Virus record (IMG/VR): IMGVR_UViG_3300043595_000031
Coordinates: 1 to 62,175 of that record
Length of the DNA: 62,175 bases
Reading direction: 5' to 3' (one strand)
DNA from: a virus
Taxonomy: Duplodnaviria > Caudoviricetes
The first letter of the stretch is position 1. The number at the start of each line of letters is the position of its first letter. Positions 16,314 through 30,961 of the stretch are shown one piece after another. The position numbers and the translations under genes are program-made. The notes under the pieces are model-generated. The model was not told where the DNA came from. It saw only the letters and a program-made list of their open reading frames with translations, and did not search any database.

Positions 16314-17513
16314 CTATATCAAGCTTGGGTGATCGTTGGTTGTGTTGATGTCATACTCTCTCTCCGCGATGAGAGTTCCGGTGTACGATCCGGGGGCACC
16401 GTCCAGCGCCGCACGGATCCAGCCACCGATCCAGTGGCCACAGTCGACCGTGATGCCCTTACCCCAGGTCATGTTGAGTCCGCTGACTCCGCGCAGTGGG
16501 AGGATGCGCCAGTCGTCGGGGAATCCGAGGATGCGGGCCGTCTCACGGTGAGTGATCGTACGATCCAGACGAGGATGCACCACATTATGAAGGCCGCCGC
16601 CAGTGATGACTCGACCACTTTTCTGCCCATCCCAGCGGACGGGGGTTGTGAACCCCATGAAGAAGTCATTCTTGATCACCTTCTCTTCGGTCGCTCGCCA
16701 CGAGTCTGGAAGCTTGCCGTGCTTCGTCCAGTATGCGCGTGCGACCTCGCCGATCGCCATGCTTGGCTTCCAGTCGACACCGGCCATGAGGTCGCGCATG
16801 CGCCTGGTGAGTGGGTTGTCCAGCCCCACGTGCCCGTCTACGGAGCCGCCGTCCGACCGCCGACCAACTGACCACCAGGTCGGTGGCATCCGGTACGGCT
16901 GGGCCTGCCACGTCGAGCTCAGGTTCTCGAGGTCTCCGATAACGTCGTTCAGTCGAGGAATTCGCCTAAGCGCTGGACGCTCGATACCGAAAGGCACCCG
17001 TGAGGCAAGCCAGAAGTAGCGTCGTCGTACCGCTGCTCCGCCAACGGCGAGTGCGTTATGACGAATGTGATAAAGGGTCCATACGTCGCCAGTACGCTCA
17101 GTAAGACGCTCTCGCAGTGCCCGCATAAGGGCGTGTCCGTCGACGGAGGTGTAAGCGTTCTGAACGGACTCGAAGACCGCCATCTGCGGTCGTACGCGAG
17201 CTGCATAGTCTGCGAACGCCCACATGCAGTGATTGATCTTCGAATCCGCGCCGCGAAAGTCTCGCGCGGACATGACGCTGAAACCTGAACACGGCGGATT
17301 GCCAAAGACGACGTCAGCGTCGACGGTCGTCCACGCCTCGGGGACAACCGCCTCAGCTCGCCAAGTATCTCCGAGGAGATGGCGGTTATGTTCACAGTTC
17401 GCGACACCGAACCCTCCCTTCATTTCACGCTTGCCGACGAGTGTGAAGCCCGCCTGGACCATGCCCAGCGTGAAACCACCCGCGAAGCCTTGACAGTCAA
17501 CCGCTCGATACAC
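16314..17513 (-). CDS. DNA (cytosine-5) methyltransferase homolog with diverged motifs
   Basis: GNPPCSGFS (motif IV), FESV (VI), RRRYF (VIII), TITHRETARILGFPD (IX); GTG start at 17513 with GGGAG RBS. Confidence 0.85.
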   Translation of the reverse strand: MYRAVDCQGFAGGFTLGMVQAGFTLVGKREMKGGFGVANCEHNRHLLGDTWRAEAVVPEAWTTVDADVVFGNPPCSGFSVMSARDFRGADSKINHCMWAFADYAARVRPQMAVFESVQNAYTSVDGHALMRALRERLTERTGDVWTLYHIRHNALAVGGAAVRRRYFWLASRVPFGIERPALRRIPRLNDVIGDLENLSSTWQAQPYRMPPTWWSVGRRSDGGSVDGHVGLDNPLTRRMRDLMAGVDWKPSMAIGEVARAYWTKHGKLPDSWRATEEKVIKNDFFMGFTTPVRWDGQKSGRVITGGGLHNVVHPRLDRTITHRETARILGFPDDWRILPLRGVSGLNMTWGKGITVDCGHWIGGWIRAALDGAPGSYTGTLIAEREYDINTTNDHPSLI

Positions 17514-17673
17514 GACGCCGCTCCCTGTGCGTTCGAACGCAGTAGAGATCCTTATCGTACGACCGCAGGTCGGCGCAGGGCGCGCCGGGTGGAGCGTTGC
17601 ACTTCGGACACATACACGCACGCGCAAGCGTAATGAGCTCTCGTACGCTGTGTGTCCGAAGTGTTGGCCGCAT
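17497..17673 (-). CDS. Small Zn-finger protein
   Basis: CPKCNAPPGAPC...H-x-x-R pattern. Confidence 0.6.
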   Translation of the reverse strand: MRPTLRTHSVRELITLARACMCPKCNAPPGAPCADLRSYDKDLYCVRTHRERRRVSSG

Positions 17674-17683
17674 GATCTGGATT

Positions 17684-18160
17684 CTATACCGCCCGTGATC
17701 CGAGGTACGCACCGCAGACGCAGTGTATGTCCACCCGCTGGGTGGATTGTGCGAAGACTTCCTTCGCGTCCATGTCGTCCAGTGCGCGCTGGCAGTTGAG
17801 GCACTTCGTCGCGACACCGTCGTAGCCGTTCTCCTGGCGTTCGATGTTCGTCGCCAGCTTCGTCACGTACTTCTCGTAGAGCTCGTCGGAGTCGACGCCC
17901 ATGTGAAGGAGGAGGTTCATGAAGAAGTGCCAGGCGTCGATGAGCTCCTTCACCGCTGCGTCGCGGTTGATGTGGCGTGAGGTTGCCCACTCCTTCCAGC
18001 CCATCTCGTTGATGGCCTCGTACAGTTCGGCGATCAGTGCGAACATCGAGATCTTGAAGTTCGTGATGCGCTGCTCTTCCGTCTGCTCTTCGAGTGTGTA
18101 GCCATTGAGCTTCTCTTGGAACGAACGCTGCATCTCAAGCATACTCGCAAGCCGGTCCAT
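17684..18160 (-). CDS. Dimeric all-alpha dUTPase/dCTPase (MazG superfamily) with C-terminal Cys motifs
   Basis: ELYEAINE..WKEW..KELIDAWHF..NIERQENGY. Confidence 0.85.
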   Translation of the reverse strand: MDRLASMLEMQRSFQEKLNGYTLEEQTEEQRITNFKISMFALIAELYEAINEMGWKEWATSRHINRDAAVKELIDAWHFFMNLLLHMGVDSDELYEKYVTKLATNIERQENGYDGVATKCLNCQRALDDMDAKEVFAQSTQRVDIHCVCGAYLGSRAV

Positions 18161-19020
18161 TAGTGTCCCTTCAGTGCGCGTGCGATGCCTTCTTCGAGCG
18201 TGATCTTCGGTGTGTAGTGCATGTGCAGTCGGTCCGTGTTACCCACGCGGTAGAACACACCCAGCGGTGCGTCGCGGTCCACGTCCAGATCGGGCTCATA
18301 CCCGGCCGAGTTGGTGATCATCCGAGCCAGCTCTCCCATCGACGTGGGACGGCCTGTGCACAGGTTCACGGGCTTCTGCATTCCGTCCGCGATGAGCTTC
18401 ACGATGGCGTCGCAGATGTCGTCGATGTGGATGAAGTCGCGAACCTGCTCCGCGCTGCCCCAGATCTTGAACGGATCATCGCGGCGGCGTGCGCGCTCAA
18501 TGAACGCGCGGAACGGGAAGTCCTCCGACTGGTCCGTGCCGTACCCGGAGAACGGTCGCACGATGGTACCGTCGAGTCCGTTCGCAATCGCCGTCATCAT
18601 GAGGCGCTCACCGACGAGCTTCGTGAACCCGTACGTGTCGGCGGGTTCGTCGACGGAGTCTGTGTCTCTCTCTTGAAGTTTCGTCGGCACCTCCTGCATC
18701 CACGCCGGGTAGACGGCCGATGACGAGAGGTACACGAAGTGCCGCTGCCGCGTGCGCGCTGCCCACTCAATCATCGACGCATCGAGCTTGACGTTGTACG
18801 CGAAGTGTTCCGGCTGGGTGTCGATTGCGCGGCGGTTTGGTCCGGCGGCCGCCGCGTGGATGACGAGATCAAACTCGCGGCCGGTCTCACGCACGTAGTG
18901 CATCGCGTCGAGACCGTGTTGCGCGTCGATGCCCGTGACGTCCCAGCCGTCATCGGCGAGACGACTGAGCATGTGACGACCGACGAAGCCGGCGTGCCCC
19001 GTGATCAGTGCCTTTTTCAC
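18160..19020 (-). CDS. NAD-dependent NDP-sugar epimerase/dehydratase (extended SDR)
   Basis: GHAGFVG, SSSAVY, YGFTK, RDFIHIDD. Confidence 0.93.
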   Translation of the reverse strand: MKKALITGHAGFVGRHMLSRLADDGWDVTGIDAQHGLDAMHYVRETGREFDLVIHAAAAGPNRRAIDTQPEHFAYNVKLDASMIEWAARTRQRHFVYLSSSAVYPAWMQEVPTKLQERDTDSVDEPADTYGFTKLVGERLMMTAIANGLDGTIVRPFSGYGTDQSEDFPFRAFIERARRRDDPFKIWGSAEQVRDFIHIDDICDAIVKLIADGMQKPVNLCTGRPTSMGELARMITNSAGYEPDLDVDRDAPLGVFYRVGNTDRLHMHYTPKITLEEGIARALKGH

Positions 19021-20024
19021 AGTGTCTTCCAATCTGCGACCCACGCCTTGGCGAACGCCGTGGTGTCACGGGGTAGGATGTCGCCGGTGGCGTAGACGAG
19101 TTCGTCCCACGCGTGCCACAGTGGCATGCTGGCGGAGATGTGTGCGTTCTGCAGCGCGGTGATGAAGTCGAACGTGTGGTGCATTCCCCACAGCTCTGCG
19201 CGTAGATCGTTCACGAGGTTGTGTTCGTTGCGATCCTGTCGCACGACCGGTTCACCGACGAAGAGCCCGACATTGTGCTCACGCGCGATGCGGTGGAAGA
19301 GGAACGACGCGAAGATGTCGTCGAACCGGCCGATGCCCGGTAGGCAGACCATGAGTGGCGCCCACTTGATGTCCCACATCGTCGCCTGCGTGTTGAACGC
19401 CGCGTACACACCGGGACGAATCACCGCGTTCGTTCGCACTGCCTTCACGTCGGGAGCGTGCGCCATGCGCTCAATGGCGTCGCAGTCTGGGTCGCCGAGC
19501 ACTTGGGCCTGCGCCACGACGACGCGGCAACCCTCGTTCGCGCGAACGATGATGGGTGTCGTAGCGACACCGTACGGCACACCACGCTGGTGGAACATGG
19601 GTGAGCACAGCGCACCCGTGTTGAGAAACGGCGACTTGGACGAGATGAACGTGAGCTGCTCGGGGAACGCTGCGAAGTTGCGCAGGTGTCCGTCGATGAA
19701 CTCCGTGACGTTGGGTAGTGGAAAGTTATCGTCGTCGACGGTGATGACGTAGTCGTACTGCTTCCGGCGAAGCACCTCCATGATGGCGGCACTGCGCCGC
19801 TGAATCTTGTTCCAGCCCAGGAGTTCCGACCAGGCGAACTCGGCGGACTGGTACTCGGGCGAGAGGTAGATGCCGTCGACGTCCGTGAGGTAGTCACGGA
19901 GCATGAGTGGTGTCTTGCGATCACCGGCAACGATGAGGTCTACGCGGTCGTCGGACGACCACGCCTCGTACGCGGACGGAGCCGCGTTGATGCTGGTGCT
20001 CACCACGGCGATGTTACGCGTCAC
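19017..20024 (-). CDS. GT75 / RGP (UDP-arabinopyranose mutase)-STELLO-like protein
   Basis: VAGDRKTP, TVDDDN, RGVPY, GDPDCDAIER, FNTQAT, GRFDDIF. Confidence 0.7.
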   Translation of the reverse strand: MTRNIAVVSTSINAAPSAYEAWSSDDRVDLIVAGDRKTPLMLRDYLTDVDGIYLSPEYQSAEFAWSELLGWNKIQRRSAAIMEVLRRKQYDYVITVDDDNFPLPNVTEFIDGHLRNFAAFPEQLTFISSKSPFLNTGALCSPMFHQRGVPYGVATTPIIVRANEGCRVVVAQAQVLGDPDCDAIERMAHAPDVKAVRTNAVIRPGVYAAFNTQATMWDIKWAPLMVCLPGIGRFDDIFASFLFHRIAREHNVGLFVGEPVVRQDRNEHNLVNDLRAELWGMHHTFDFITALQNAHISASMPLWHAWDELVYATGDILPRDTTAFAKAWVADWKTL

Positions 20025-21387
20025 CGTAAATCCTCTTCTCGATCATCTTCATGTATGTGAGGTCCTTGAGTGCTCGGTCGAAGTGCTCTCGCTGGAGTGC
20101 GACGAGCTCGCGCCACTTAAGTGGGTTGACGGCGAGGCTGTCGATCCGGTCCCTGAGCTCCTTTGGCGTCTTCACGCGGAGCCACCACTGCAGCTCCGCG
20201 GACGCGTCGCCGAGGATGTTGTTCTGCGTGTCGTACTCCGGGTGAAAGAAGCACACAGTCCCGGCGGCGAACGCCTCCCACGGCTTCGCGGTTGCCCATC
20301 CACTTCCGGATGAGGGAGTGGTGAAGGTGCACCGGACGCTGTGAAGTTTCGGGTAGTACTGATCCCACGGTGCGGGCTTGATCATCTCGTGGTAGCCCGA
20401 CTCCTTCGACCACGTGCCGTGAACGAAGTGCGGCTTCAGTGGCATCACCCAGTCGCGGAGGATGTTCTTACGCTGGAGCTCGGGTCGGATCCCGATGGCG
20501 CGTGCCTCATTAATGAACAGTCCGAAGTCTCCCGACCGCTGCCAATCGTCGTTAAATGATATGAGGTCACCGAACGGCGTTCCGGGCCGAAGTCCGTTGA
20601 TCTCGAGACGAGCGTACGTGTCGCGCACGGTTGACAGCCACGTCTCTGACGGATAATCACCGATCTGCGTCGCGTAGTGCGTCCACTCTTGCCCCGGCCA
20701 GCCAGGCGTGACGGGCTCACGGAAGTCACCGTAACGGTGATGCTTAAGCGGTTTTTCACTGTTGAACTGCGCGAGGATCGGATGACGAAGCGGCCACTTC
20801 ATGTCGCGCATCTTGTGGCGGTTGCGCGCGTCCGCGTTGAGACAGATCTCCTCGCGGTTCCACGGGTCGACGTCGCGCCAGCGATTGATGCCGCGGAGCA
20901 TGAAGCCGGAGTACCACGCGCACCAGTCCTGCGGCTTCGTCAGCTGCGTCGGATCCTCTACCTTCGGGATCGGCGTGTTCGACGTGCCGTGCTGGCCGAC
21001 CCACATCACCATCGCATCGAGCGACTCGAAGGTCTTGAACGTGATGTCATCGAAGATCTTCGCCAACCGGAGCTGGCGAGCGGGTGTGAGCGTCTCACCC
21101 TTAATGTCGCCGTCAGCTGCGATCGCCGCATCGAGTTGCGGCTTCCACGGTCCGCCGCCGTACGGGTAGTGCACGTTCCACGGGTTGTGAACGTTCTCCG
21201 GAAGTCCGACGTCTTGCGGGTTCTCACCGCTGTTACGCCCGATCAGGATGTACGCGTTGTCCGGGTGTCGCAGTGCCATCTCCTTGACGACCGCGACCAT
21301 CTCGACGTCGCCGCCGAGGTTGCCGCATCGCTCCAGTGTGAGCGGCATGGAACGTCCTAGCTTTCCGTAGCCGATGATCTTGCCCAT
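20014..21387 (-). CDS. GT-B fold glycosyltransferase, candidate DNA base glycosyltransferase
   Basis: C-terminal ATAKPWEAFAAGTVCFF GT-B signature; sits with nucleotide-sugar and dNTP genes. Confidence 0.6.
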   Translation of the reverse strand: MGKIIGYGKLGRSMPLTLERCGNLGGDVEMVAVVKEMALRHPDNAYILIGRNSGENPQDVGLPENVHNPWNVHYPYGGGPWKPQLDAAIAADGDIKGETLTPARQLRLAKIFDDITFKTFESLDAMVMWVGQHGTSNTPIPKVEDPTQLTKPQDWCAWYSGFMLRGINRWRDVDPWNREEICLNADARNRHKMRDMKWPLRHPILAQFNSEKPLKHHRYGDFREPVTPGWPGQEWTHYATQIGDYPSETWLSTVRDTYARLEINGLRPGTPFGDLISFNDDWQRSGDFGLFINEARAIGIRPELQRKNILRDWVMPLKPHFVHGTWSKESGYHEMIKPAPWDQYYPKLHSVRCTFTTPSSGSGWATAKPWEAFAAGTVCFFHPEYDTQNNILGDASAELQWWLRVKTPKELRDRIDSLAVNPLKWRELVALQREHFDRALKDLTYMKMIEKRIYGDA

Positions 21388-21402
21388 GCTTATCCTTCCT
21401 AA

Positions 21403-21447: not shown

Positions 21448-22044
21448 TTAGAACGCGGGAGTGGGAGGTGAAGTGGCGGGTGGTGCGGCCGGCATCGCAC
21501 CGATCGTCGGAGTGGTGGGCGCGGCCGGCGTGGACGGAACCGGCGGCCCCGACGGAACGCTCGGTGTCGACATCGGGGAGGCTGAGCTGCCCGAGGTGGC
21601 ACCGTACTTGGCCGGCCCGACAACCAATCCAGGCGGTGGCGGACCGGTCAGTACAAGCGGAGCAATCCGCTTGATCTCGTTAAGCGTCGCCCCCTGCCAC
21701 TCCCGCTGACCCAGCGTCAGGTGAGCACCGCGGTTGAGAAGGGCGGCCGCTACGTCGTCCGGCTTCGGGCTGGCGGCGAAGAAGTCCGTGTCCAGTCCGA
21801 GCAGCGCCATCTGGTCGAAGAAGATACGCAGAGCCACGGACGACTCGGCGGAGATGGTGAAGTTAGAGCTCACAGCCCGCTTCTCATACGGGCCGCCGAT
21901 GATCCGCCACTTCGTCTTGATCATCGGCTTGCCGTTGGACGACGTCGTCGCCGTGGCCTCGACGATGATCGCGTCGTAGTCGCCGTCCGGCATGGCGCTG
22001 CCGGCCTTCGCCGTCTGCTGCAGTGCAGACCAGTCGATTTCCAT
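21448..22044 (-). CDS. DUF669 SSB-like protein
   Basis: MPDGDYDA..SSNGKPMI..REWQG..NEIK; Pro-rich tail ending in F; next to AAA ATPase. Confidence 0.75.
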   Translation of the reverse strand: MEIDWSALQQTAKAGSAMPDGDYDAIIVEATATTSSNGKPMIKTKWRIIGGPYEKRAVSSNFTISAESSVALRIFFDQMALLGLDTDFFAASPKPDDVAAALLNRGAHLTLGQREWQGATLNEIKRIAPLVLTGPPPPGLVVGPAKYGATSGSSASPMSTPSVPSGPPVPSTPAAPTTPTIGAMPAAPPATSPPTPAF

Positions 22045-22047
22045 TCA

Positions 22048-22809
22048 CTACTCCTTTGGGTAGATCGTGTCCATCATACCGGACACGCTTGGGTTGACGA
22101 TGTTGTCGGGAAGCATGCCCTGCACGCGCTCTCCCGACTCGAACTGCTCGTGTGACCCGACGAACAGGTTCACGATCTTCTGTGTGAGGTTGCCGTCCGC
22201 GTCGGGTCCACGCGTCTGGTAGAGGTAGCCGCAGATGTCGACCCAGTACGGGAGCGACGTCGCGATCTGTCCCTGCATGTACGGGCGCCACTTGCCGTTC
22301 AGCTCACGCGTCTCGGCAATGAAGATGACGCACCGCGTCGGCTGGTGCGGGTTGATGGTGAGGTCACGGATGCCGCGGATGAGCTGATCCATCCGGGCAA
22401 GGACCGCGCCCCAACCGTCGTAGCCCTTCACGATGCCGTCGCCGCTGATGTTCGTCTTTAGTCGGCGCTGCAGCTCAGTGATGCTGTCCAGGACGATCGA
22501 CACGAAGTCGTGCTGCCCGGACAGCAGCCACGCCACCACCCGCTGGATGTCCTCCCAACTTGTGATGCTCACGTACGCGACGTCCCACGTTCCGTCGTGG
22601 CGCGGTGGTGCCTCCACTGGGTTCCACGTCATCTTGCGCAGTGGGATGCCCGACCTGAATCCCTGCTCACGGATGAACTTCCACGAACCCTCCGCGTCGA
22701 TGACGAGGAGAGGGAGTGGTGCGGTCGACGTCACCGTCGATTTACCCGCCTTGCTCGCGCCGTGAATGAGCATGCTAATGACGCGATCATCCTTCACTTG
22801 GTTTCCCAC
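22048..22809 (-). CDS. AAA_24 / Sak4-like ATPase
   Basis: GASKAGKS Walker A; IVLDSITE Walker B. Confidence 0.85.
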   Translation of the reverse strand: MGNQVKDDRVISMLIHGASKAGKSTVTSTAPLPLLVIDAEGSWKFIREQGFRSGIPLRKMTWNPVEAPPRHDGTWDVAYVSITSWEDIQRVVAWLLSGQHDFVSIVLDSITELQRRLKTNISGDGIVKGYDGWGAVLARMDQLIRGIRDLTINPHQPTRCVIFIAETRELNGKWRPYMQGQIATSLPYWVDICGYLYQTRGPDADGNLTQKIVNLFVGSHEQFESGERVQGMLPDNIVNPSVSGMMDTIYPKE

Positions 22810-23093
22810 TGGATGTTGCGTGTCACCGCAAAGACATCTACGTCGGTGATCACAGAAAGCTTACGATCGATGTCGGTGATGTTAGCACCGCGTGCGGTGT
22901 ACACCCAGCCGACGAAGTGTCCATCGTAGTTCGTGAAGAGCTCTCCGGCCCAGCGATCGTTTGCAGCGTCCATGAGAATATCGAATTTCTCAACTGCCGC
23001 TTCTTCGACAACGACGAGTGCATACTGCGTCGTCACTGGTTTCTGCGTCGTCTCCACTTCAGCGGTGCGCACGTGATTTACGTACTTGCTCAT
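22794..23093 (-). CDS. Hypothetical protein
   Basis: Fills the gap in the operon with overlaps. Confidence 0.6.
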   Translation of the reverse strand: MSKYVNHVRTAEVETTQKPVTTQYALVVVEEAAVEKFDILMDAANDRWAGELFTNYDGHFVGWVYTARGANITDIDRKLSVITDVDVFAVTRNIQWETK

Positions 23094-24367
23094 TCGTTCA
23101 CTCCCAGCACTTCGTTCTTGTAGTAGTCGAGTGGATCACCCTCGTCGTAGTACTGCTTGATCATGTCCTCCACTCTGGAGCCGTCGTCGAACATCGGGCA
23201 GATGGCGAGGAACGGGCAGTCCCACGCGCAGTCACGCGTCGGTGACGGATACGCGACGGTGTGGTGTGATGCTCCCGCGTTGAGCTGGTCGGCCACCTCC
23301 ATCATGTCAGTGATCTCGCCGACGATGCGCCGGCGGTAGTTCTCCACGGTGTGAACGTTGTGGCGAACCTCGACGCGCTCGAAGAACGGCGGCTTCGCCG
23401 CGGCCGTGCGTCGCACGCGGCGCATCATGTTGTAGAGCGCACCCTCAGTTCGCAGTCCGTCGTCACCCAGTGCCATCGCCTCGAGGAGGTGGTAGTGCAT
23501 CATCTGCTCGTTCAGCGGAAGCATGCGCACGAGGTCGCCGAAGGACGCGACGGACTTGTGATCCATGAAAAGATACACGTTGTCGATCTTTCGCCGCAGC
23601 CGCACATCCAGCTTGCCGATGATGGCGACCTTGTCGTCGAACTCGGCGAGACCCGCCTCCACGTACTGCTCGGCGGCGACCACCTCGAGCTCGGAGTCGG
23701 CACCCGTCTCCGCGATCCACTGGAGGTATCCCTCCATCATGATGCGCTCGAGGTCGGCCTCCTTCTCGAACTTCGCCCGCACATCATCGTTGACGAGTGG
23801 GTTGCCCTCCATCGCTGCGCGATCCTGGAGGATGAGTCCTTCCAGCGCGGCGAGGAGGTCGATCGGCCCGCTGGGTGAGTAGTGAAACTGGAGCGCACGG
23901 TGTAAGCGGTTGCCGATCTGCCGTGGGCCGATGGGTGACTCGTGCCTGAGGTGAAGTCCACGGTGCCACGCCAGCCACCACTTGCGGCGGCAGCGCTTGA
24001 ACGACTGGATCTCCGAGTTAGACACGTAGCGCTCGTAGCGCTTGTCCATCACCCTGACGAGTGCGGCGAAGTCCACCTCCTCCACCACGGGAGTAAGTGG
24101 TAGGAAGTTGTCTTGCGTCTCGTTCACCGTGATAATGGCGACGGGTGGCGGTGCCGGCGGTGGGATGCGGATGGGTTGACCCGGCAGTGTGTTCCCGCTG
24201 GGTATCACGCCCACGAGGTCGAGTGCGGTTCGCTCGTCATCGTGAATGACGTTCTTATTCTCGATCCGCCACACCTTCCCCTCGGTGAGGCCACACGCGG
24301 CCGCCAGTGCCTTTCGCGACATGTTCCGGCGACGACGGTAGTCGATGACGTCCGCACCGGTCATCAT
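23090..24367 (-). CDS. PD-(D/E)XK Cas4/RecB-like exonuclease with N-terminal XRE HTH
   Basis: SNSEIQSFKRC, GKLD..DHKS, CAWDCPFLAIC; N-terminal MSRKALAAACGLTEGKVWRIE. Confidence 0.85.
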   Translation of the reverse strand: MMTGADVIDYRRRRNMSRKALAAACGLTEGKVWRIENKNVIHDDERTALDLVGVIPSGNTLPGQPIRIPPPAPPPVAIITVNETQDNFLPLTPVVEEVDFAALVRVMDKRYERYVSNSEIQSFKRCRRKWWLAWHRGLHLRHESPIGPRQIGNRLHRALQFHYSPSGPIDLLAALEGLILQDRAAMEGNPLVNDDVRAKFEKEADLERIMMEGYLQWIAETGADSELEVVAAEQYVEAGLAEFDDKVAIIGKLDVRLRRKIDNVYLFMDHKSVASFGDLVRMLPLNEQMMHYHLLEAMALGDDGLRTEGALYNMMRRVRRTAAAKPPFFERVEVRHNVHTVENYRRRIVGEITDMMEVADQLNAGASHHTVAYPSPTRDCAWDCPFLAICPMFDDGSRVEDMIKQYYDEGDPLDYYKNEVLGVNE

Positions 24368-24450
24368 AGCACGATCAGTCCTACGATGACGACCAGCGTT
24401 GCGCAGATCATTCCGAGTGCGAGCAGTCCGGCCTTCGTACTGGGTGTCAC
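24364..24450 (-). CDS. Tiny single-TM peptide (28 aa)
   Basis: VTPSTKAGLLALGMICATLVVIVGLIVL; exact GTGA and ATGA coupling on both sides. Confidence 0.5.
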   Translation of the reverse strand: MTPSTKAGLLALGMICATLVVIVGLIVL

Positions 24451-26264
24451 AACTTCACCGCCATGATGCGTGCCTCCTCGGCATCGAGTTCGTCGGGTCT
24501 TCCACCCGCGGCGATGATCGTAGCACGATCACGCGTGATCTCCTGCAGCCGCAGGAACTTCTCAGTCAGCGAGACGATCTGCTTCTCCTCGACCGTTCCT
24601 CTCGCGACGATGTCAATGACGTGGATGGACTCGTGAATCTCCGAGCCGATGCGGTGCACGCGGTCCTCGGCCTGCTTGTTGTCGATCATCGAGTCGCTAC
24701 GCTGTAAGAAGACGATGGTGTCGGCCGCGGTCATCGTCAGGCCCGTACCGCCGGCCTTCAGGGTGAACAGCAGCACACGGAGCTTCCCGGCCTGGAACTG
24801 CTCCAGTGTGAGCTTCCGCTCGTACTCAGTGATGGCTCCGGTGATGAGGCCGTACGAGATCCTCAGCTTGTCGAGTCGGGCGGCCGCCAGGTCGATGAGC
24901 TTACGCTGCTCGGCGCACACCACGATGGGAGCGTCACCGTGCTCCTCGAGCACGAGCTCCAGTTCGTCGAGCTTGGGCGACGGCTCGCAGGGTATCCACG
25001 TCGTGTCATCGATCTTCACCATCGACGAGGCGATCTGCATGTGACGAATGCGTGCGACGAGTTGGTCCGTGACGCTTACGTTCGTTCCGTCGACGTTCAC
25101 GACGACCTGGTCGTCGAGCTGACGGTACACCTTCGCCTGCGCGGGGGTTAGATCCACCCAGCGTGTCGTACGTATCTTGGCAGGCAGTTGGCTAAGAACG
25201 AGCGCCTTCGGCATGCGCCGGAAACGCGAATCGAGCAGTTGGTCGAACTCAGCTCGTGCGGCGGGGTTGATCCCAACGATGTCGAGACCTCCGAAAGCGT
25301 TCCATGACTGCAGGCAATAACGGTCAACGAAGTGTCCTCGTGCTGGAAAGTCGAGCGGCGAGATCGCGTGAAGGATCGACCACAGATCTCCCGGATGATT
25401 TGCGAGTGGTGTGCCTGTGAGTGCCCAACGTTGCCGCACGCTATGCTGATGCGCCACGGCCCACACCGATCGTGTCTGCTTCGACTGGGGATTCTTAATT
25501 CGGTGTGCCTCATCAATGATCACCGTTCGAAAGGGGATCCGGTTGAGCTCCTTGGGATGCACCTCGCACTGGGCCGGCTTGAGCGTCTGCTCACCGTTCG
25601 TCTTGTCGCACTCACGGCAGCGACGGAGACGGATGCTCCCGTAACCGGTGAGCCGTGAGAGGAGACGTACCGACTCGATGTTCACGATGACGACGGCACT
25701 GGGATCCTGCGCCGCGGCCTCGAGCACCTTCTTACGTCCGACCGCACCGCCCGTGACGACGTACGGTACACCCTCCGCCGTCCACCGCGCGGTCTCGTCG
25801 GCCCAGTTCGTCTTCACCGAGTTCGGGCAGATGACGAGTGCGGGGTACTGGTCCGACACGTCCAGTGCGTTCAGCACCTGGATCGTCTTGCCCGTTCCCA
25901 TCTCATCGGCGAGGAGTGCCTCACTCGCAAGCTGGACGAACGTCGAGCCGACGCGCTGAAAGTCGTAGAGCCGATCATCGCGGTCAACCCAGGCGTCGCC
26001 GGGTAGCTTCGTCAGGTTGCGCATCGCCATGAGTCGCTCGATGCGCGGTCGCTGCAGCCACGCCCAGTCGTTGAGATCTCCACCGACGACGAGCTTCTCT
26101 GCGAACACACCGCGTAAGACGACGCACGAGGTCCACGTCAGTGGCATGTGCCAGAACTTATTCACCGGATCCCAGCGGGCTCCGGGTACGAGCTTGATCA
26201 GCTCACGCTCATTCCACTGGGTGTGAACGATGATGCGATTGGCGTTAACGTCGGCGGTAGGCAC
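24447..26264 (-). CDS. SNF2-family (SF2) helicase
   Basis: LADEMGTGKT, DEAH, LTGTP, QAEDRVHRIG. Confidence 0.93.
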   Translation of the reverse strand: MPTADVNANRIIVHTQWNERELIKLVPGARWDPVNKFWHMPLTWTSCVVLRGVFAEKLVVGGDLNDWAWLQRPRIERLMAMRNLTKLPGDAWVDRDDRLYDFQRVGSTFVQLASEALLADEMGTGKTIQVLNALDVSDQYPALVICPNSVKTNWADETARWTAEGVPYVVTGGAVGRKKVLEAAAQDPSAVVIVNIESVRLLSRLTGYGSIRLRRCRECDKTNGEQTLKPAQCEVHPKELNRIPFRTVIIDEAHRIKNPQSKQTRSVWAVAHQHSVRQRWALTGTPLANHPGDLWSILHAISPLDFPARGHFVDRYCLQSWNAFGGLDIVGINPAARAEFDQLLDSRFRRMPKALVLSQLPAKIRTTRWVDLTPAQAKVYRQLDDQVVVNVDGTNVSVTDQLVARIRHMQIASSMVKIDDTTWIPCEPSPKLDELELVLEEHGDAPIVVCAEQRKLIDLAAARLDKLRISYGLITGAITEYERKLTLEQFQAGKLRVLLFTLKAGGTGLTMTAADTIVFLQRSDSMIDNKQAEDRVHRIGSEIHESIHVIDIVARGTVEEKQIVSLTEKFLRLQEITRDRATIIAAGGRPDELDAEEARIMAVKL

Positions 26265-26297
26265 TCATTCGCTCCGTTCATTTCGGTGCTTTCTGTT

Positions 26298-26738
26298 TTA
26301 GATCGTACCAAGCGCCGTCTGCACCAGGCTGTGGTCGGGCCACCGCTGGGCGAGTCCGAGGAACGCGTGACGCGCGGCCTGATTGACGTGATCCTTGCCC
26401 GGCACCCACCAGTCGATGACGGCGAGTTGCTCACGCGTGACGCGCATACGCTCACTGCGACCCTGCAGTGTGAACGTCTCACCCGTCTTATAAGCGAGGT
26501 AGCGAAGAGCACCGATGATCTCCAGCGCCTCCGGCTGCTGCGTGTGCTTGCCCGACGTCATCGTGTACCGTTCACAGTGAATGTGAATGGCACCCTGCGT
26601 CGCGCGGTGGATCTCCAGCAGACGATCCACCTCGGACACGCAGTCGATCGCCTCGAGCTCGGTGCCGAACGAGTAGCTCGTCTTTTCGTTCACGACGAAC
26701 AACCCGGACATCTTACCGGGATCCACGGCGATGATCAC
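26298..26738 (-). CDS. RuvC-like Holliday junction resolvase
   Basis: IIAVDPGKMSG, CER, DHVNQAARH; GTG overlapping the polymerase stop. Confidence 0.7.
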   Translation of the reverse strand: MIIAVDPGKMSGLFVVNEKTSYSFGTELEAIDCVSEVDRLLEIHRATQGAIHIHCERYTMTSGKHTQQPEALEIIGALRYLAYKTGETFTLQGRSERMRVTREQLAVIDWWVPGKDHVNQAARHAFLGLAQRWPDHSLVQTALGTI

Positions 26739-28501
26739 TCCCACTCCTTCTTTGAGCCCCACGAGTTTCCCCACGACACGGACGAAGAGAGCGGCACCGT
26801 GAACATTGTGTCGTCGTTCATCGTCTTCTTCAGGATGTCCGCGACGTCCGCGGCCGACTCGCGCGGAACGTCGAGGATAATCTCGTCGTGCACGGGTACG
26901 ACCATCCACTCACCGAGGCCGGCGTTGTCCAGCTCAATGATCTTCTTCTTGAGCACCGCGGCGGCCGCGCCTTGGATGAGGAAGTTGACGAGTGCGTACT
27001 CTTTGCCAGGATCGCTAACTTGCTTGCGTCGCGTGATGGGACAGCGAACGTACGGGAGACCCTCGTTCACCCGCCGCTGGGTGGCCACGGACTGCACGCT
27101 TCGCTGGAACTTAAGAACGTCCGGGAAGAGTTCGTCCCAGCGGGCGCGGACGGCGCGACCCTGCTCGACCGGGATGCCGGCCGTCTTGCTGAACTTCTCC
27201 ACACCCGCGCCGTAGATGGTCGCGTACCCAGCGTTCTTGACGACCTGCCGTCGCACGTCAGACTTGACGATGTTCTCATCGCCGTACACCATGCGGGCGA
27301 GAGCGACGAAGAAGTCAGTGTCGCCCTTGAACGCCGCGATCATCGACGCCTCGCCGGCCATTGACGCCAGCATCCGCATCTCCACCTGGTCGAAGTCGCA
27401 CATCATCATGACGTTGCCCGGTCGCGCCGTGACGCAGTTGCGACACGTCTCGGCCGCCGGTTGGTTATCGTTCTTCCGCGGGAGGTTCTGAAGATTTGGT
27501 CGCTCCATAGACATCCGTGAAGTCCGAGCACCCAGTACGTTGATGGAGGGATGGATGAGGTGATCGGCGTCAACCTCCGTGACGAAGTGCCCCAGGTACG
27601 TCGACGCCAGCTTCTGTAGCTGACGACGCTGAAGGACCGTCTGGGCAAGAGGATGATCGATGGCGCCGAGAACTTCCTTGTCCAGAGCCAGAGCGCCCGA
27701 GGCCGTCTGCTTGTCGAACTCATAGCCCGCCTCCTGCAGGATCTTGATGACCGACGCGTTCGCTCCCGCGGAGATTCCGTACGTCGACTTCACCCACGCG
27801 GCGGACTCGTCGACGTAGCGCGTGAACGCGGCCAGCTTCTCTTGCGCGTACGGCAGGTCGATGTGCGCGCCGTACCGCTCCATCCGCTCGATGATCCAGC
27901 TAACGGTGTTCTCCAGCTCAAAGGCGTCCGGGCACTCCGCCTGCACCTGCGGCCAGAGGATCTCCGCGACCTTCCACGTCAGCACCGCATCGAGCGCGCC
28001 GTACGTCCAGTACGGCTGGTACGTGATGGGAACCGTCGCCCACGTCCACGCCGTGTCCTTCAGCTCCGTCTGGAGTGACGCGGCCTGCGCGTCGACGAGA
28101 CGAGACGCTACGTTCTTGAGGGCGGTGGAGTAGTGGGGCGTGAGGCAGTGTGACATGATTCGCGTGTCACGGACACGGTCACGCGGCATGGTGATACCCG
28201 CGTGGTCAAGCATACCCACGTCGAACTTCGCGTTGTGAGCCAGCCAGTGGCCGTCCCACCGCCTGACGATGTCGCCGAACAGACCGTGCCAACCGTCGAA
28301 AGGAATAGCCCAGCCGTGAACACCGTCTCCCACCTGGACAAGACGGACCCGATCCTGACCAACGATGAGCCCAGTCGTCTCAGTGTCGAATGCGAGAGCG
28401 TGAATCTCACGGCGATTTCCCATCCACTCGTGGAGCTTGAGCACCTCATCGATGCTGTCGACGAGATGCAACTTGACGTCACCCAGACTCACGGGTATCA
28501 A
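26735..28501 (-). CDS. polA: Family A DNA polymerase with 3'-5' exonuclease
   Basis: FDTETTG, HNAKFD, DFDQVEMR, KNAGYATIYG, VHDE. Confidence 0.95.
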   Translation of the reverse strand: MIPVSLGDVKLHLVDSIDEVLKLHEWMGNRREIHALAFDTETTGLIVGQDRVRLVQVGDGVHGWAIPFDGWHGLFGDIVRRWDGHWLAHNAKFDVGMLDHAGITMPRDRVRDTRIMSHCLTPHYSTALKNVASRLVDAQAASLQTELKDTAWTWATVPITYQPYWTYGALDAVLTWKVAEILWPQVQAECPDAFELENTVSWIIERMERYGAHIDLPYAQEKLAAFTRYVDESAAWVKSTYGISAGANASVIKILQEAGYEFDKQTASGALALDKEVLGAIDHPLAQTVLQRRQLQKLASTYLGHFVTEVDADHLIHPSINVLGARTSRMSMERPNLQNLPRKNDNQPAAETCRNCVTARPGNVMMMCDFDQVEMRMLASMAGEASMIAAFKGDTDFFVALARMVYGDENIVKSDVRRQVVKNAGYATIYGAGVEKFSKTAGIPVEQGRAVRARWDELFPDVLKFQRSVQSVATQRRVNEGLPYVRCPITRRKQVSDPGKEYALVNFLIQGAAAAVLKKKIIELDNAGLGEWMVVPVHDEIILDVPRESAADVADILKKTMNDDTMFTVPLSSSVSWGNSWGSKKEWE

Positions 28502-28691
28502 TCCTCACCATCGTCTGAATCGACACCTTGTGTTCGGTCCCGGCTATGTGAAGGCCGGCCCACACGTCACGCTCTGCGCGAACATCGAACGGCATCTCAA
28601 GTTCGCAGCCCTCACAGTTCGCCATGTGAAACACCGTCACGTCGGCGCTCGCCTGAAGTAAGATCGCCTGTCTCACAGCTCCGTCACCCAC
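28479..28691 (-). CDS. Small Cys/His protein
   Basis: CEGC...H...H pattern; fills operon gap. Confidence 0.5.
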   Translation of the reverse strand: MGDGAVRQAILLQASADVTVFHMANCEGCELEMPFDVRAERDVWAGLHIAGTEHKVSIQTMVRIDTRESG

Positions 28692-29236
28692 AGTCCGCAG
28701 CTCATCATGAAGTCCATCGCCCTCTGCGGACTGCGGTGTGAGTCGTCGATCGCGGGCCTCGCGTAGAAGACCTTGAGCAGTCCGCTGTTCGCGATCAACT
28801 TAGCGCAGCCGAAGCACACCGTGGAGGAGACGTAGATGCTACCACGTACCCGCTGGGCGCGATCACCGAACATTAGCGCGTTCGCCTCGGCGTGGAGCGA
28901 CGGGCAGTCGGAGTAGTCCGCTGCGAGCGTACGCCCGGTGAGAACTTCCACCGCTCTTCCCTGAATCTCACGCTCGAACGTCGTCTGCGTTCGCCCACGC
29001 TCGCACCACCACTCGCAGGTGGGACGGTTAATGTCCGCGCCACCGCCGCAGTTCGCGGGTGAGAACCCAGCGGGTGGCCCGTTGTACCCCGTGTCGACGA
29101 TCCGGTTCTCGGCAGAGACGATCACGGCTCCGACCTGGTCACGGGCGCACAGCGACCGGCGACCAACCGCCTTCGCCGTGTCCATCCACAACTGGTCCCA
29201 GGTAGGACGCGAAGACCTTGCGATACTGTCGTTCAC
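28673..29236 (-). CDS. dCMP deaminase
   Basis: RPTWD, RSLC, VGAVIV, TGYNG, HAEANA, CFGC. Confidence 0.92.
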   Translation of the reverse strand: MNDSIARSSRPTWDQLWMDTAKAVGRRSLCARDQVGAVIVSAENRIVDTGYNGPPAGFSPANCGGGADINRPTCEWWCERGRTQTTFEREIQGRAVEVLTGRTLAADYSDCPSLHAEANALMFGDRAQRVRGSIYVSSTVCFGCAKLIANSGLLKVFYARPAIDDSHRSPQRAMDFMMSCGLWVTEL

Positions 29237-30035
29237 TGCTCGTCTCCTCCACGTTCTCTGCGTTCGTTGTGAGCACGCGTGCGCGCTTCATCATGGTGGT
29301 AAAGCTGTCGCTCGGTCGGCCGATACCCGAGAAGACGAGCTCGTCGAGCTTCGGCTCGCGGAGCGGTCGGAAGTCGCAGTCCAAAGCCTTCGACACATCC
29401 TCGACGTAGATGTGCATGGACATCGTGACGTGGCGGTAGCGCCCGGGCTCGAGTCCGAGTGCGCGGGCGACGGTGCACTGGAGCTGGGTGAACTGGAACA
29501 GGTCGTACGGTAGTCCCAGCCAGACGTCGTTGCTCCGCATGACGACGGTCATACACAGGAGGTCGCGCCGGTTGATCTCAAAGTGGAGCATCACCGTGCA
29601 CGGGTAGTCCTTCTTGTCCTCGAGGTTATCGAGCACGGGATCCCAGAGGGTGACGATGGCCTGCCGCGTCTCCGAATCCTCCTTGAGCTTGCGTACGACG
29701 CTCGCTACCTGGTACCGCACGCGGCTGCCGTACGAGCCGTGGAAGTGACCGTCGGGTTCCAGAAAGTCGTTGAACTTTACCGCGGCCTTCGTCAGGAGGT
29801 CCGTGTTGGTGAACCCACCGATCAGCTGAACGGCCTCGGCCACCGCGATGCGCATGGTCAGGCCGGGACGAAGACCCAGCGGGAACGCGTAGTACGGTGT
29901 CTCCAGCTCAATGACCGTGAATCCTAGATCCCGTGTCTTGCGTCCGCGCGGTTCACGCGGAACACCCTGCACGATTACGCTGTGGACAACGTCGCCGTAG
30001 ACGTCCTGGCCGTGGAGGGCTTCGAAGGTCGCCAC
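29139..30035 (-). CDS. Thymidylate synthase homolog, probable dCMP hydroxymethylase or other dCMP C5-modifying enzyme
   Basis: TRQA, DYPC, MRSNDVWLGLPYD (Asp at the base-specificity site), SMHIY; GTG start at 30035. Confidence 0.8.
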   Translation of the reverse strand: MATFEALHGQDVYGDVVHSVIVQGVPREPRGRKTRDLGFTVIELETPYYAFPLGLRPGLTMRIAVAEAVQLIGGFTNTDLLTKAAVKFNDFLEPDGHFHGSYGSRVRYQVASVVRKLKEDSETRQAIVTLWDPVLDNLEDKKDYPCTVMLHFEINRRDLLCMTVVMRSNDVWLGLPYDLFQFTQLQCTVARALGLEPGRYRHVTMSMHIYVEDVSKALDCDFRPLREPKLDELVFSGIGRPSDSFTTMMKRARVLTTNAENVEETSSERQYRKVFASYLGPVVDGHGEGGWSPVAVRP

Positions 30036-30961
30036 TTGAGTTCGTTCCTCTCGGTTCCGCTTACGCTCCTGATGAGTTGACCGTACTCGGCGACCGCATG
30101 GTTGTGGAAGCGCCGAACGTACTGGGGGTGCGGCACCGCGGCGTGAGGCACGCCACACTCCGTGAGTCGCTCGGAGGCCTTCACACCGAGTGCGACGGTC
30201 GTGGGTCGTCCGAGGTCGACCCACAGTGCGTCGGAGAGGTCCACGTCGCAGGCGTTCGCCACCGCGACCCCGTCCGGTAGCGGATCCAGTGCGCGGAAGA
30301 GGAACTCCCCCGACGTCGCCGGATAAGGCATGAACGCGGGGCCCGCTACGTCGTGTGGCGTCTTGTGCTTACACGTCTGCCCGTCGCACGCGCGAACGTC
30401 GCCCATGAGGAGCACGTTGGGCCTGGGGGATCCGATCCACGTCGTGTACGTCTTTCGGAGATACTCGACGGATGCCTCACGGAGTGAGGCAGTGCTCATC
30501 ACCATGTTCGGCGGCTGAATCGTCTTTGTGCGTAGGAAGCATTGGATTCCGCGGAATCCGTGAGCGGCCTCGAGAAGCTGTCCCGCATTGACGAAGTCGT
30601 CGCCTCGTTCGATGAAGCGACACATGAGGATCTCATCGGTTTGATCGAGCACAAGCGTGGTGGCGCCGCGCGACTGCAGGAAGAGCTCAATGTAGTCGAG
30701 GACTCCCGGCGTCATGCGCGTCGACCGTCCCATGACGGTCGGGTACACGGCCTCGCCCACGTGCCAGCGATCGCAGAGCACGACGTCGTGCGGACCGAAG
30801 CAGAGAAGCGGTACGACGTACGCGTCGAGCGGATGGATCTTGCCGGGTGGTCCTGCTTGAAACCAGTGGTACGGCTGGCGGGAGCTCACGAAGTTCGCGG
30901 AGATATTCTCGGCGAGTGTCGACTTGCCGACGCAGTCGGGTCCCTCTAAGATGATAAGCAC
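29975..30961 (-). CDS. dNMP kinase fused to a uracil-DNA-glycosylase-superfamily domain
   Basis: EGPDCVGKST and CDRWH kinase motifs; C-terminal LLMGD..AF..SGEFL..VALG..HP. Confidence 0.75.
   Translation of the reverse strand: MLIILEGPDCVGKSTLAENISANFVSSRQPYHWFQAGPPGKIHPLDAYVVPLLCFGPHDVVLCDRWHVGEAVYPTVMGRSTRMTPGVLDYIELFLQSRGATTLVLDQTDEILMCRFIERGDDFVNAGQLLEAAHGFRGIQCFLRTKTIQPPNMVMSTASLREASVEYLRKTYTTWIGSPRPNVLLMGDVRACDGQTCKHKTPHDVAGPAFMPYPATSGEFLFRALDPLPDGVAVANACDVDLSDALWVDLGRPTTVALGVKASERLTECGVPHAAVPHPQYVRRFHNHAVAEYGQLIRSVSGTERNELKWRPSKPSTARTSTATLSTA

Follow-up and report, generated by a model that had tools for sequence, protein, structure and literature searches.

A probable sugar-modified cytosine pathway with its own nucleotide-sugar genes in an uncultured soil phage

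The gene run and its recurrence in related loci

The IMG/VR virus record IMGVR_UViG_3300043595_000031 is a single contig of 62,175 bp that makes up the whole assembly, has a G+C content of ~62% and represents a complete phage genome; it was analyzed over its full length (positions 1 to 62,175, hereafter the window). Between positions 16314 and 30961 its minus strand holds a run of genes that is predicted to specify a cytosine modification pathway, comprising a nucleotide branch with a thymidylate synthase (TS) homolog, a glycosyltransferase (GT) of the GT-B fold, two putative enzymes of nucleoside diphosphate (NDP) sugar metabolism, and a homolog of C5-cytosine methyltransferases (C5-MTases). 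What is observed in this run is its gene content, the folds of its proteins (as predicted models), active-site residues and conserved synteny, and everything said below about products is inferred from these. The favored, though far from secure, reading is that the phage DNA carries glycosylated 5-hydroxymethylcytosine (hmC) with a non-glucose donor that would be made by these genes, while somewhat less assurance attaches to the donor being specifically a furanose.

Genes were called from open reading frames (ORFs) together with Pfam, PHROGs, and NCBIfam profile searches, the Pfam scans covering ~40 ORFs of the 62,175-bp genome. All nine genes that the first-pass annotation had listed for this minus-strand run were found there, and a flavin-dependent thymidylate synthase gene that bears on the same pathway lies outside it:

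29975..30961, minus strand: nucleotide kinase (phrog_761)
29139..30035 (ORF 29139-30224), minus strand: ThyA-fold enzyme, predicted hydroxymethylase of deoxycytidine monophosphate (dCMP) (PF00303)
28673..29236, minus strand: dCMP deaminase (PF00383, phrog_174)
26735..28501, minus strand: family A DNA polymerase (PolA) with 3'-5' exonuclease (PF00476, PF01612)
20014..21387, minus strand: 457-aa GT-B glycosyltransferase, T4 beta-glucosyltransferase-like by fold (structure comparison)
19017..20024, minus strand: 335-aa GT75-family protein, predicted NDP-sugar pyranose/furanose mutase (MtdL match)
18160..19044, probable start GTG at 19020, minus strand: extended short-chain dehydrogenase/reductase (SDR), predicted NDP-sugar 4-epimerase (PF01370, phrog_540)
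17684..18160, minus strand: all-alpha dimeric d(C/U)TPase-type pyrophosphatase, a deoxynucleoside triphosphatase (dNTPase) (PF08761, phrog_18650)
16314..17513 (ORF 16314-17990), minus strand: atypical C5-cytosine methyltransferase homolog (PF00145)
39786..40703, plus strand, outside 16314-30961: ThyX flavin-dependent thymidylate synthase (TIGR02170, PF02511)

The TS homolog most likely starts at GTG 30035, which is preceded by a GAGAGGAA Shine-Dalgarno sequence, and the C5-MTase homolog at GTG 17513, preceded by GGGAG, the long N-terminal stretch of the latter ORF overlapping the dNTPase gene out of frame. The GT-B and mutase genes overlap (20014/20024), as do the mutase and SDR genes (19017/19020), and the SDR and dNTPase genes share base 18160; since these four genes overlap or abut, they are read as one translationally coupled block.

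Related loci were collected through an IMG/VR pattern scan with the alignment of the transferase, which yielded 71 loci from 70 contigs, and these loci were then searched by tblastn with the module proteins of the window. Gene order as followed by tblastn is the same throughout the 71 loci, and this recurrence indicates that the arrangement is not due to chance. The C5-MTase homolog, itself a member of the module, was found in 47 of the 49 loci with at least 4.5 kb of downstream DNA, the two without it being the most distant relatives (30% identity), and the dNTPase in 45 of the 49 with enough flank. A TS homolog was found in 35 of the 42 loci with at least 9.5 kb of upstream DNA; for five of the seven loci without one, the fetched DNA reaches no further than PolA, such that the TS gene would fall outside it. 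Cultured phages were represented by a comparison set of 50,697 phage records.

The nucleotide branch and the putative DNA transferase

The TS homolog matches PF00303 (E 7e-26), and its nearest solved relative is the CMP hydroxymethylase MilA (E 9e-18). In an alignment with E. coli ThyA and T4 gp42, the catalytic cysteine (E. coli C146) is retained, leucine 143 is replaced by aspartate (KDYPC, compared with ALAPC in E. coli and SDFMC in T4), asparagine 177 is likewise replaced by aspartate (PYD, compared with PFN in E. coli, RND in T4, and VSD in MilA), and D169 is kept within an MRSND stretch identical to that of gp42. The same D143/D169/D177 pattern is shown by T4 gp42 and MilA, and the three residues recur in 36 of the 36 TS homologs found among the 71 related loci, the remaining 35 loci being without a TS match mostly because the fetched flank stops short of the gene. 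Work on characterized enzymes describes N177D as specifying dCMP and L143D/E as correlating with a hydroxymethyl rather than a methyl product, while D169N marks the 5-hydroxy-dCMP synthases of RB69, DLP3, and others, a diagnostic that held for all nine additional enzymes assayed (PMC13326640). With D177, D143, and D169 all present, these rules lead to hydroxymethyl-dCMP (5-hm-dCMP) as the predicted product, and the 5-hydroxy diagnostic fails. Two other products were considered and rejected: hydroxymethyl-uracil, brought up by SP-10 and SPO1-like phages among the best phage hits of the TS homolog and by the presence of a dCMP deaminase, was set aside on account of Asp177, and 5-hydroxycytosine, for which there is precedent (PMC13326640), on account of the retained D169.

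The kinase matches phrog_761 ('thymidylate kinase', E 8.6e-10) over its N-terminal 124 aa only, and its best PDB match is YorR (2axp/3kb2, E 0.006), with LIILEGPDC..KST aligned; the P-loop part, residues ~1-165, is thymidylate kinase (TMK)/YorR-like. The same YorR entry is the top hit of the DLP3 'nucleotide kinase' in Table 1 of PMC13326640, where the kinases adjoining TS homologs in DLP3, RB69, and RL38JI are likewise YorR/TMK-like. An extra C-terminal domain of ~150 aa (29975-30451) completes the ORF, and both halves are conserved in relatives. This domain has no match in Pfam or in the PDB; its nearest ESM-Atlas clusters are small viral proteins in which the uracil-DNA glycosylase (UDG) family PF03167 occurs in 19-36% of members (score 0.89), giving a lead only toward a UDG-like domain.

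The dCMP deaminase (PF00383, E 1.4e-13; phrog_174, E 1.5e-33) has the HAE and C..C zinc motifs, as well as an insert of ~50 residues between its N-terminal region and the HAE motif; the Pfam match runs from 12 to 159 for a 102-position model. PolA matches both PF00476 (E 2e-64) and PF01612 (E 1.8e-13). ThyX scores above its cut-off in TIGR02170 (E 2.6e-54) and matches PF02511 (E 4e-53); as it supplies dTMP, the ThyA-fold enzyme is free for cytosine chemistry. The dNTPase, which ends in a cysteine-rich tail, is above the cut-off of PF08761 (E 1.8e-13), matches phrog_18650 (E 3e-34), and aligns by BLASTP with T4 gp56 at 40% identity over 42 aa (E 4e-11). It is proposed to be a dCTPase/dUTPase that would remove dCTP and supply dCMP.

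The 457-aa transferase has 734 homologs in public data, and an alignment of 49 of these gave an AlphaFold2 (AF2) model with a predicted local distance difference test score (pLDDT) of 88 and a predicted template modeling score (pTM) of 0.89. The four best matches of this model in a Foldseek search of the PDB are all T4 beta-glucosyltransferase (BGT). T4-BGT-like enzymes make up CAZy family GT63. In a structure comparison, T4 BGT is again the best match, ~5 Z units above the next family (BshA, 18.3), with still lower scores for the HY126 DNA arabinosyltransferase (16.4) and T4 alpha-glucosyltransferase (16.2-16.6), and the rank-2 match in the viral model library BFVD is annotated 'DNA beta-glucosyltransferase'. 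The modeled fold is thus BGT-like, and the protein is proposed to be a DNA hmC glycosyltransferase, with the genomic context supporting a role in transfer. No match to it was obtained by tblastn against the 50,697 phage records, a collection that therefore lacks cultured relatives of the transferase.

The first-pass annotation had named a dCMP-type TS homolog, a dimeric dNTPase, and a GT-B transferase in this part of the run, and the three assignments stand: Asp occupies positions 177 and 143 and D169 is kept, as in gp42 and MilA; the pyrophosphatase is a d(C/U)TPase family member with significant similarity to gp56; and the transferase has a GT-B fold that is closest in structure to T4 BGT.

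Putative sugar-donor enzymes, the variable slot and the methyltransferase homolog

The 335-aa protein has itself no Pfam match at E 0.01, and its relatives carry PF03214/PF03385. Its AF2 model (pLDDT 96) matches the GDP-sugar pyranose/furanose mutase MtdL best in Foldseek (E 2.7e-27, TM-score 0.83-0.87, 23-24% identity), followed by the rice UDP-arabinopyranose mutase UAM2 (E 9e-16), and a profile of its family matches MtdL at E 2.4e-55 and rice UAM at E 9.6e-9. Residues of MtdL with described roles (PMC9937993) were mapped by hand onto the profile alignment, and their conservation was followed in 53 sequences. The equivalents of the MtdL DxD motif, Arg159, Asp195, Gln229, Arg257, Asp260, and Arg289 are invariant or nearly so, and in window numbering the mapped positions include D97-D98-D99, R147 (R159), D180 (D195), Q213 (Q229), R233 (R257), and D236 (D260). 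In the mechanism proposed for MtdL, Arg159 acts as the nucleophile and Asp260 as the base (PMC9937993). The protein is accordingly predicted, from its family profile and its model, to be a metal-dependent NDP-sugar pyranose/furanose mutase of the MtdL/UAM type. As to the nucleotide carrier, the guanine-binding Thr13 and Asp40 of MtdL are kept as invariant T10 and D35, and the plant UDP-specific enzymes have proline at the Thr13 position; with these guanine contacts kept, there is a lean to a GDP-linked donor, held without confidence since Asn42 and Ser86 of MtdL are lost (see below). Searched against the 50,697 phage records, the mutase gave six weak matches only, in four Synechococcus phage and two uncultured megaphage records, where the proteins are annotated as hypothetical or putative membrane protein or are unannotated.

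The SDR matches PF01370 (E 1.7e-38) and phrog_540 ('nucleotide-sugar epimerase', E 8e-51), and its nearest solved relatives are GDP-L-fucose synthase (E 6e-21), MoeE5, and GDP-mannose 3,5-epimerase (GME). NCBIfam matches fall far under their cut-offs (99 bits compared with 500 for GDP-L-fucose synthase, and 51.5 compared with 262 for GalE). The Tyr-x3-Lys motif is kept (YGFTK; solved enzymes have YAIAK, YGLEK, and YGVTK at this place), while GME Cys145 is replaced by Ala, GME Lys217 by Phe, and the fucose-synthase Cys by Ala; GDP-mannose 3,5-epimerase and GDP-fucose synthase, the best PDB hits, are ruled out by the absence of these acid/base residues. In SDR enzymes, preference for NAD over NADP is set by an Asp that closes the second strand. 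The SSSAVYP motif and such an Asp are taken here to indicate a redox-neutral, NAD-type 4-epimerase, and the acidic residues that follow the Ser in dehydratases and decarboxylases are presumably lacking. The protein therefore looks like an NAD+-dependent NDP-sugar 4-epimerase. An axial C4 hydroxyl has been argued to be necessary for ring contraction (PMC9937993), and a 4-epimerase would yield the axial C4 hydroxyl required on that argument.

The two sugar genes occupy a slot beside the GT-B gene whose content varies between loci, as seen by Pfam on representatives, with counts taken over loci with complete flanks. In 47 of 47 such loci the slot holds NDP-sugar genes, and the flanking genes are constant. 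Mutase plus SDR occurs in 19, mutase alone in 10, a nucleotidyltransferase (here ~500 aa) with a SIS isomerase in 5, a nucleotidyltransferase alone in 6, and a nucleotidyltransferase with an APH-like kinase in 7. The set of SIS isomerase and nucleotidyltransferase is similar to the path by which RB69, DLP3, and HY126 are described to make UDP-arabinofuranose from arabinose 5-phosphate (PMC13326640), a likeness that makes it plausible that at least one further cassette also provides an orthologous transferase with a furanose. The SIS-containing loci keep the hydroxymethylase-type TS signature with D169 retained, for which reason they may put arabinose on hmC rather than on 5-hydroxycytosine.

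Here, too, the first-pass annotation is upheld. Its GT75-like protein is a clear homolog of the solved NDP-pyranose/furanose mutase MtdL, with the catalytic Arg and Asp kept; its SDR epimerase is a PF01370 protein of epimerase type that has Tyr-x3-Lys and is without the 3,5-epimerase acid/base residues; and its suggestion of a furanose donor gains support from the SIS isomerase and nucleotidyltransferase that relatives carry in the same slot, in likeness to the published arabinofuranose route.

The C5-MTase homolog matches PF00145 at E 9.5e-15 (55 bits against a cut-off of 22) and has weak PDB matches to DNMT1, M.HaeIII, and M.HhaI (E 1e-7 to 1e-3). The catalytic Pro-Cys (GNPPCSGFS), the motif VIII arginines, and motif IX are kept. 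The canonical C5-MTase consensus strings are ENV for motif VI and GN(A/S)V for motif X; the corresponding strings here are ESV and GKG, with ENV seen in the DNMT1 alignments. The FAGG, NPPCS, ESV, RRR, RETARILGFPD, and GKG motifs are conserved in 50 sequences of the homolog, which is better conserved than the GT-B protein among the related loci (57-83% compared with 40-81% identity). It occurs in only 17 of the 50,697 phage records, and the 12 listed are from Micrococcus phage Kurnik, Actinomycetia phage DSL-LC01, and the Gordonia phages GodonK, Phendrix, Sixama, GMA2, Mareelih, and Forza; the Asp-type TS homolog, too, finds its best matches in DSL-LC01 and these Gordonia phages. In GMA2, the homolog is annotated adjoining a dUTPase. 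In the window, a cysteine-rich ORF of 58 aa (MCPKC...C; ~17500-17672, minus strand) lies between the dNTPase and the C5-MTase homolog, overlapping the start of the latter, and Kurnik has a 58-aa hypothetical ORF at the equivalent place. A C5-MTase homolog from a cyanophage has been described that transfers carboxymethyl and depends on a phage CmoA (PMC12783734); no CmoA turned up in the Pfam scans of ~40 window ORFs, in which no search aimed at CmoA was made.

Between the nucleotide and sugar genes lie replication and recombination genes (21448..26909, minus strand; Pfam). Six genes separate PolA from the sugar genes, including a RuvC-like ORF and a 99-aa ORF besides the following:

24447-26264, minus strand: SNF2 helicase
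23090-24367, minus strand: PD-(D/E)XK nuclease
22048-22809, minus strand: AAA_24 RecA-like ATPase
21448-22044, minus strand: DUF669 protein

The order of these genes is the same in related loci and in the annotated genome of Kurnik. Pfam matches elsewhere in the window are those of a tailed phage that brings its own replication module: Prim-Pol, a D5_N primase-helicase, and ThyX were found, together with a weak match to a tape-measure protein. When PolA is compared, the cultured phages that come closest are those of Actinomycetia, Microbacterium, Micrococcus, and Arthrobacter (35-38% identity), and a DNA-level search of the 50,697 phage records gave as its sole match 48 nt in Kurnik. From the PolA relatives and the order of the module in Kurnik, the earlier label 'actinophage', and with it a predicted high-GC Gram-positive host, is a reasonable inference. 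The phage itself is uncultured, the contig being present in only two runs of one soil-metagenome sample, as assembled contigs, and no RNA data set is listed as containing this contig.

A second glycosyltransferase gene (9083-10285, plus strand; 400 aa; PF13692 Glyco_trans_1_4, E 1.2e-7) stands at the end of the tail-gene block, and the best phage relatives of its product are annotated glycosyltransferases of the Arthrobacter phages Racecar, Mimi, and Talia1610 (36% identity) and of Streptomyces phages. This enzyme could put a second sugar on DNA or could have structures of the virion or the host as its acceptors. The genome shows no depletion of GC-rich 4-bp palindromes, as the ratio of observed to expected sites (O/E) is 1.02 for GATC (540 sites) and 0.98-1.01 for GGCC, CCGG, CGCG, and TCGA, which is weak evidence fitting a globally protected genome. 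Low O/E values are found for CTAG (0.52) and for a few 6-mers such as AGGCCT (0.37) and CCATGG (0.38), and the 9-mer CCCGCTGGG occurs 35 times over both strands.

Proposed pathway, competing explanations and meaning

In the proposed pathway, the gp56-like pyrophosphatase would turn dCTP (and dUTP) into the monophosphate, the ThyA-fold enzyme would hydroxymethylate dCMP at C5, and the thymidylate-kinase-like kinase, together with a host NDP kinase, would convert hm-dCMP to hm-dCTP. The latter would be incorporated by the phage PolA, which would have to accept a modified dCTP, while the dCMP deaminase would give dUMP to ThyX and so keep dTMP supplied. After replication, the BGT-like transferase would flip out hmC and put a sugar on its hydroxyl. 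The donor would not be UDP-glucose; rather, the SDR would 4-epimerize a host NDP-pyranose to a galacto- or arabino-type sugar, and the GT75 mutase would contract the epimerized sugar to the NDP-furanose that serves as donor of the transferase, with the carrier leaning to GDP. Galactofuranose, L-arabinofuranose, and L-fuco- or L-galactofuranose are candidates for the sugar. The product would be a furanosyl-5-hydroxymethylcytosine that would shield the genome from restriction and other DNA-targeting defenses. The first-pass annotation had seen the same logic as in T4, with hmC made at the nucleotide level and then modified by a GT-B enzyme, and the hydroxymethylase signature, the gp56-like dNTPase, and the BGT-like fold all agree with it. 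A fuller version, in which a widespread family of soil actinophages makes furanosyl-hmC through the GT75 mutase (possibly from a GDP-sugar), the C5-MTase homolog modifies this base further or complements it by chemistry other than simple methylation, and the slot is a natural cassette exchange for glycan diversity, is tentative and, taken as a whole, rather unlikely.

Several points weigh against the proposed pathway. The 457-aa transferase has no match in Pfam, PHROGs, or NCBIfam and hence no sequence-level family assignment, its alignment to BGT by hhalign is a local match of 53 residues only (E 3.6e-4, probability 37%), in which K368-P-W-E371 is aligned with the R-V-W-E nucleotide-binding stretch of BGT, and a hidden Markov model profile of its family finds no chain at E < 0.5 among the PDB sequences; with sequence evidence this thin, the protein is called BGT-like by fold, and not a proven member of the family. 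In the mutase, the Mn2+ ligand His287 of MtdL is Q263, nearly invariant in the family, and the His287 equivalent is not conserved in the inactive AtRGP5 (PMC9937993); further, MtdL Asp87, which contacts a sugar hydroxyl, is Ile, and Asn42 and Ser86 are both Lys in the window protein. The His287 to Gln change lowers, and does not remove, the case for a mutase. The SDR is dispensable and of uncertain substrate, as 10 of the 47 loci have the mutase without it, and the existence of such loci makes it an accessory supplier. The L143 and D169 rules applied to the TS homolog are correlations from a limited set of tested enzymes (PMC13326640), and the dNTPase could be a plain dUTPase. Lastly, complete substitution at C5 on the nucleotide level is not easily squared with a C5-MTase homolog that 47 of 49 loci possess; its conservation suggests that replacement is partial or that the final base is more complex.

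The same observations can be read in other ways. The GT75-like protein might be a second glycosyltransferase, of the GT-A fold, in which case the sugar on hmC would consist of one or two ordinary pyranoses and the SDR would do no more than alter donor stereochemistry, as in the epimerase-GT pairs already published. A GT-A fold and self-glycosylation are described for GT75 proteins (PMC9937993), the family here has Gln for His287 and Ile for Asp87, some relatives of the 335-aa protein also match PF03385 (STELLO), two small genes annotated as glycosyltransferases fill the slot in Kurnik, and epimerase-dependent GTs acting on 5hmC are documented (bioRxiv 10.1101/2023.12.21.572611). This explanation is nonetheless improbable, given that the mutase residues Arg159, Asp260, Asp195, and Arg257 are invariant, that MtdL is matched at a TM-score of 0.85 and a profile E of 2.4e-55 compared with TM-scores of 0.35-0.45 for true GT-A transferases, and that the alternative cassettes of the slot encode enzymes that make donors rather than transfer sugars. 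A little less probable again is that the C5-MTase homolog performs an extra step on C or hmC in DNA, making the final base something beyond glycosyl-hmC or dependent on context, with an exchange at the 5-methylene, transfer of a non-methyl group, and context-specific marking of residual C as candidate steps. The presence of the homolog in nearly all loci with conservation above that of the GT-B protein, its retained PPC with ESV and GKG deviations that are themselves conserved in 50 sequences, its co-occurrence with an Asp-type TS in DSL-LC01, the Gordonia phages, and Kurnik, and the natural precedent of a carboxymethyl-transferring homolog (PMC12783734) speak for such a step, yet the protein may simply be an orphan methyltransferase of the usual kind that works on residual C, and the precedent needs the phage CmoA that did not turn up in the Pfam scans of ~40 ORFs, which included no CmoA-directed search.

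There is only a slim chance that the three sugar genes act on virion proteins or on a host envelope polymer, leaving the DNA with bare hmC or with hmC processed by the C5-MTase homolog. These genes lie inside a replication and nucleotide module, overlap or abut the dNTPase, and keep their place in all related loci; the best structural match of the transferase is a DNA enzyme, T4 BGT, clearly above envelope enzymes; and if no transferase acted after the hydroxymethylase, the conservation of the GT-B protein would lack an explanation. Slimmer still is the chance that the acceptor is not hmC, the ThyA-fold enzyme adding another C5 group (methyl or hydroxyl) or using dUMP. The 5-hydroxy-dCMP synthases closely resemble hydroxymethylases and likewise have MilA as their best PDB hit (Table 1 of PMC13326640), and the small number of characterized enzymes behind the product rules counts in its favor, but Asp177 argues against dUMP and Asp143 against methyl, Asp169 fails the 5-hydroxy diagnostic (PMC13326640), and dTMP is already covered by ThyX.

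Compared with known systems, glycosylated hmC made along these lines would share its logic and several homologous parts with the glucosyl-hmC system of the T-even phages (T4 gp56, gp42, gp1, cd, and the alpha- and beta-glucosyltransferases), the likeness extending to the TS active-site signature, the gp56-like pyrophosphatase, the dCMP deaminase (cd in T4), and BGT as the best fold match. It differs in a predicted high-GC Gram-positive host and a 62-kb, siphovirus-sized genome, in a TS that belongs to the MilA-like rather than the gp42 branch, in a kinase that is TMK/YorR-like rather than gp1-like, in a dTMP supply through ThyX, in having its own predicted non-glucose donor (SDR and GT75 mutase), and in the atypical C5-MTase homolog of the module. 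The arabinosyl and galactosyl 5-hydroxycytosine systems of RB69, DLP3, HY126, and RL38JI likewise have a TS beside a TMK-like kinase, GT-B DNA glycosyltransferases, and a phage NDP-furanose supply, including a pyranose/furanose mutase in RL38JI (PMC13326640). The TS enzymes of these phages, however, carry D169N and make 5-hydroxy-dCMP, while the window TS keeps D169; their arabinofuranose comes by way of an arabinose-5-phosphate isomerase, a kinase/nucleotidyltransferase, and a phosphatase; and the RL38JI mutase is of the flavin-dependent UDP-galactopyranose mutase (UGM) type, whereas that of the window is of the metal-dependent GT75 type (PMC13326640, Table 1 for the mutase). With the GT75 enzymes MtdL, Hyg20, and plant RGP-UAM (PMC9937993), the window protein shares the fold and the DxD, Arg159, Asp195, Gln229, Arg257, Asp260, and Arg289 positions, differing from MtdL in its 23-24% identity and at His287 (Gln) and Asp87 (Ile), and from all of these in its location, in a phage DNA-modification operon rather than an antibiotic or cell-wall pathway. 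The MT/TET (5mYOX) clusters also pair a GT with a sugar epimerase supplying the donor, but there hmC is made after replication by a C5-MTase and TET (bioRxiv 10.1101/2023.12.21.572611), whereas in the window it is predicted to arise at the nucleotide level, and no TET-type dioxygenase turned up in the Pfam scans of ~40 window ORFs. The words 'mutase' and 'furanose' are absent from the main text of that preprint.

The closest cultured counterpart of the module is that of Micrococcus phage Kurnik (OR756649), which has the same order of kinase, TS, deaminase, PolA, RuvC-like protein, helicase, exonuclease, and RecA-like protein, and continues with a sugar slot, a MazG-like pyrophosphatase, a small ORF, and the C5-MTase homolog at 40% identity; the module segments of Kurnik lie at 407-1156 and 10675-15521. 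Unlike the MilA-like TS of the window, that of Kurnik is T4-gp42-like along the whole active-site motif region, a non-orthologous replacement that points to the same product. Its slot holds two small annotated glycosyltransferases and neither mutase nor SDR, and a 442-aa Kurnik protein at the GT-B position, considered as a homolog of the transferase, is not detectably related (hhalign probability 2%). As a cultured relative, Kurnik is an obvious experimental handle, and a literature search found no paper on this phage.

Much of the general scheme is already in print. The T-even logic is published, as are glycodiverse hmC from MT/TET clusters with epimerase-dependent transferases (bioRxiv 10.1101/2023.12.21.572611) and 5-hydroxycytosine bearing arabinofuranose or hexoses, RL38JI having a flavin UGM (PMC13326640), so that the idea of glycodiverse hmC and 5-hydroxycytosine in phages, including epimerase partners and a mutase, is not new. 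A literature search found no GT75/MtdL-type mutase in a phage DNA-modification cluster, no furanose on hydroxymethylcytosine, no BGT-like transferase in actinophages, and no dCMP hydroxymethylase paper for actinobacteriophages; a query for arabinopyranose mutase and bacteriophage gave plant papers only, and the only mention of a phage GT75 that was found counts it as a carbon-cycle auxiliary gene in soil viromes (PMC12016548). Given its T4-like gene set and its own putative route to a furanose donor, the DNA of this phage probably bears a sugar-modified base not yet described.

If the proposed pathway is correct, furanosyl-hmC would be predicted as a DNA base, and the GT75 mutase would represent a third chemically distinct phage route to a furanose donor, beside the arabinose-5-phosphate route and the flavin UGM. 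The 'GT75' genes of soil viromes (PMC12016548) would then be reinterpreted as DNA-modification genes, and sugar-hmC transferases and NDP-furanose-making enzymes could serve as new reagents in glyco-engineering and in the mapping of hmC. For new DNA chemistry, the atypical C5-MTase homolog offers a defined candidate. Most broadly, phages that infect high-GC Gram-positive bacteria of the soil would come under the T4 paradigm, in which hmC is made at the nucleotide level and then glycosylated in DNA.

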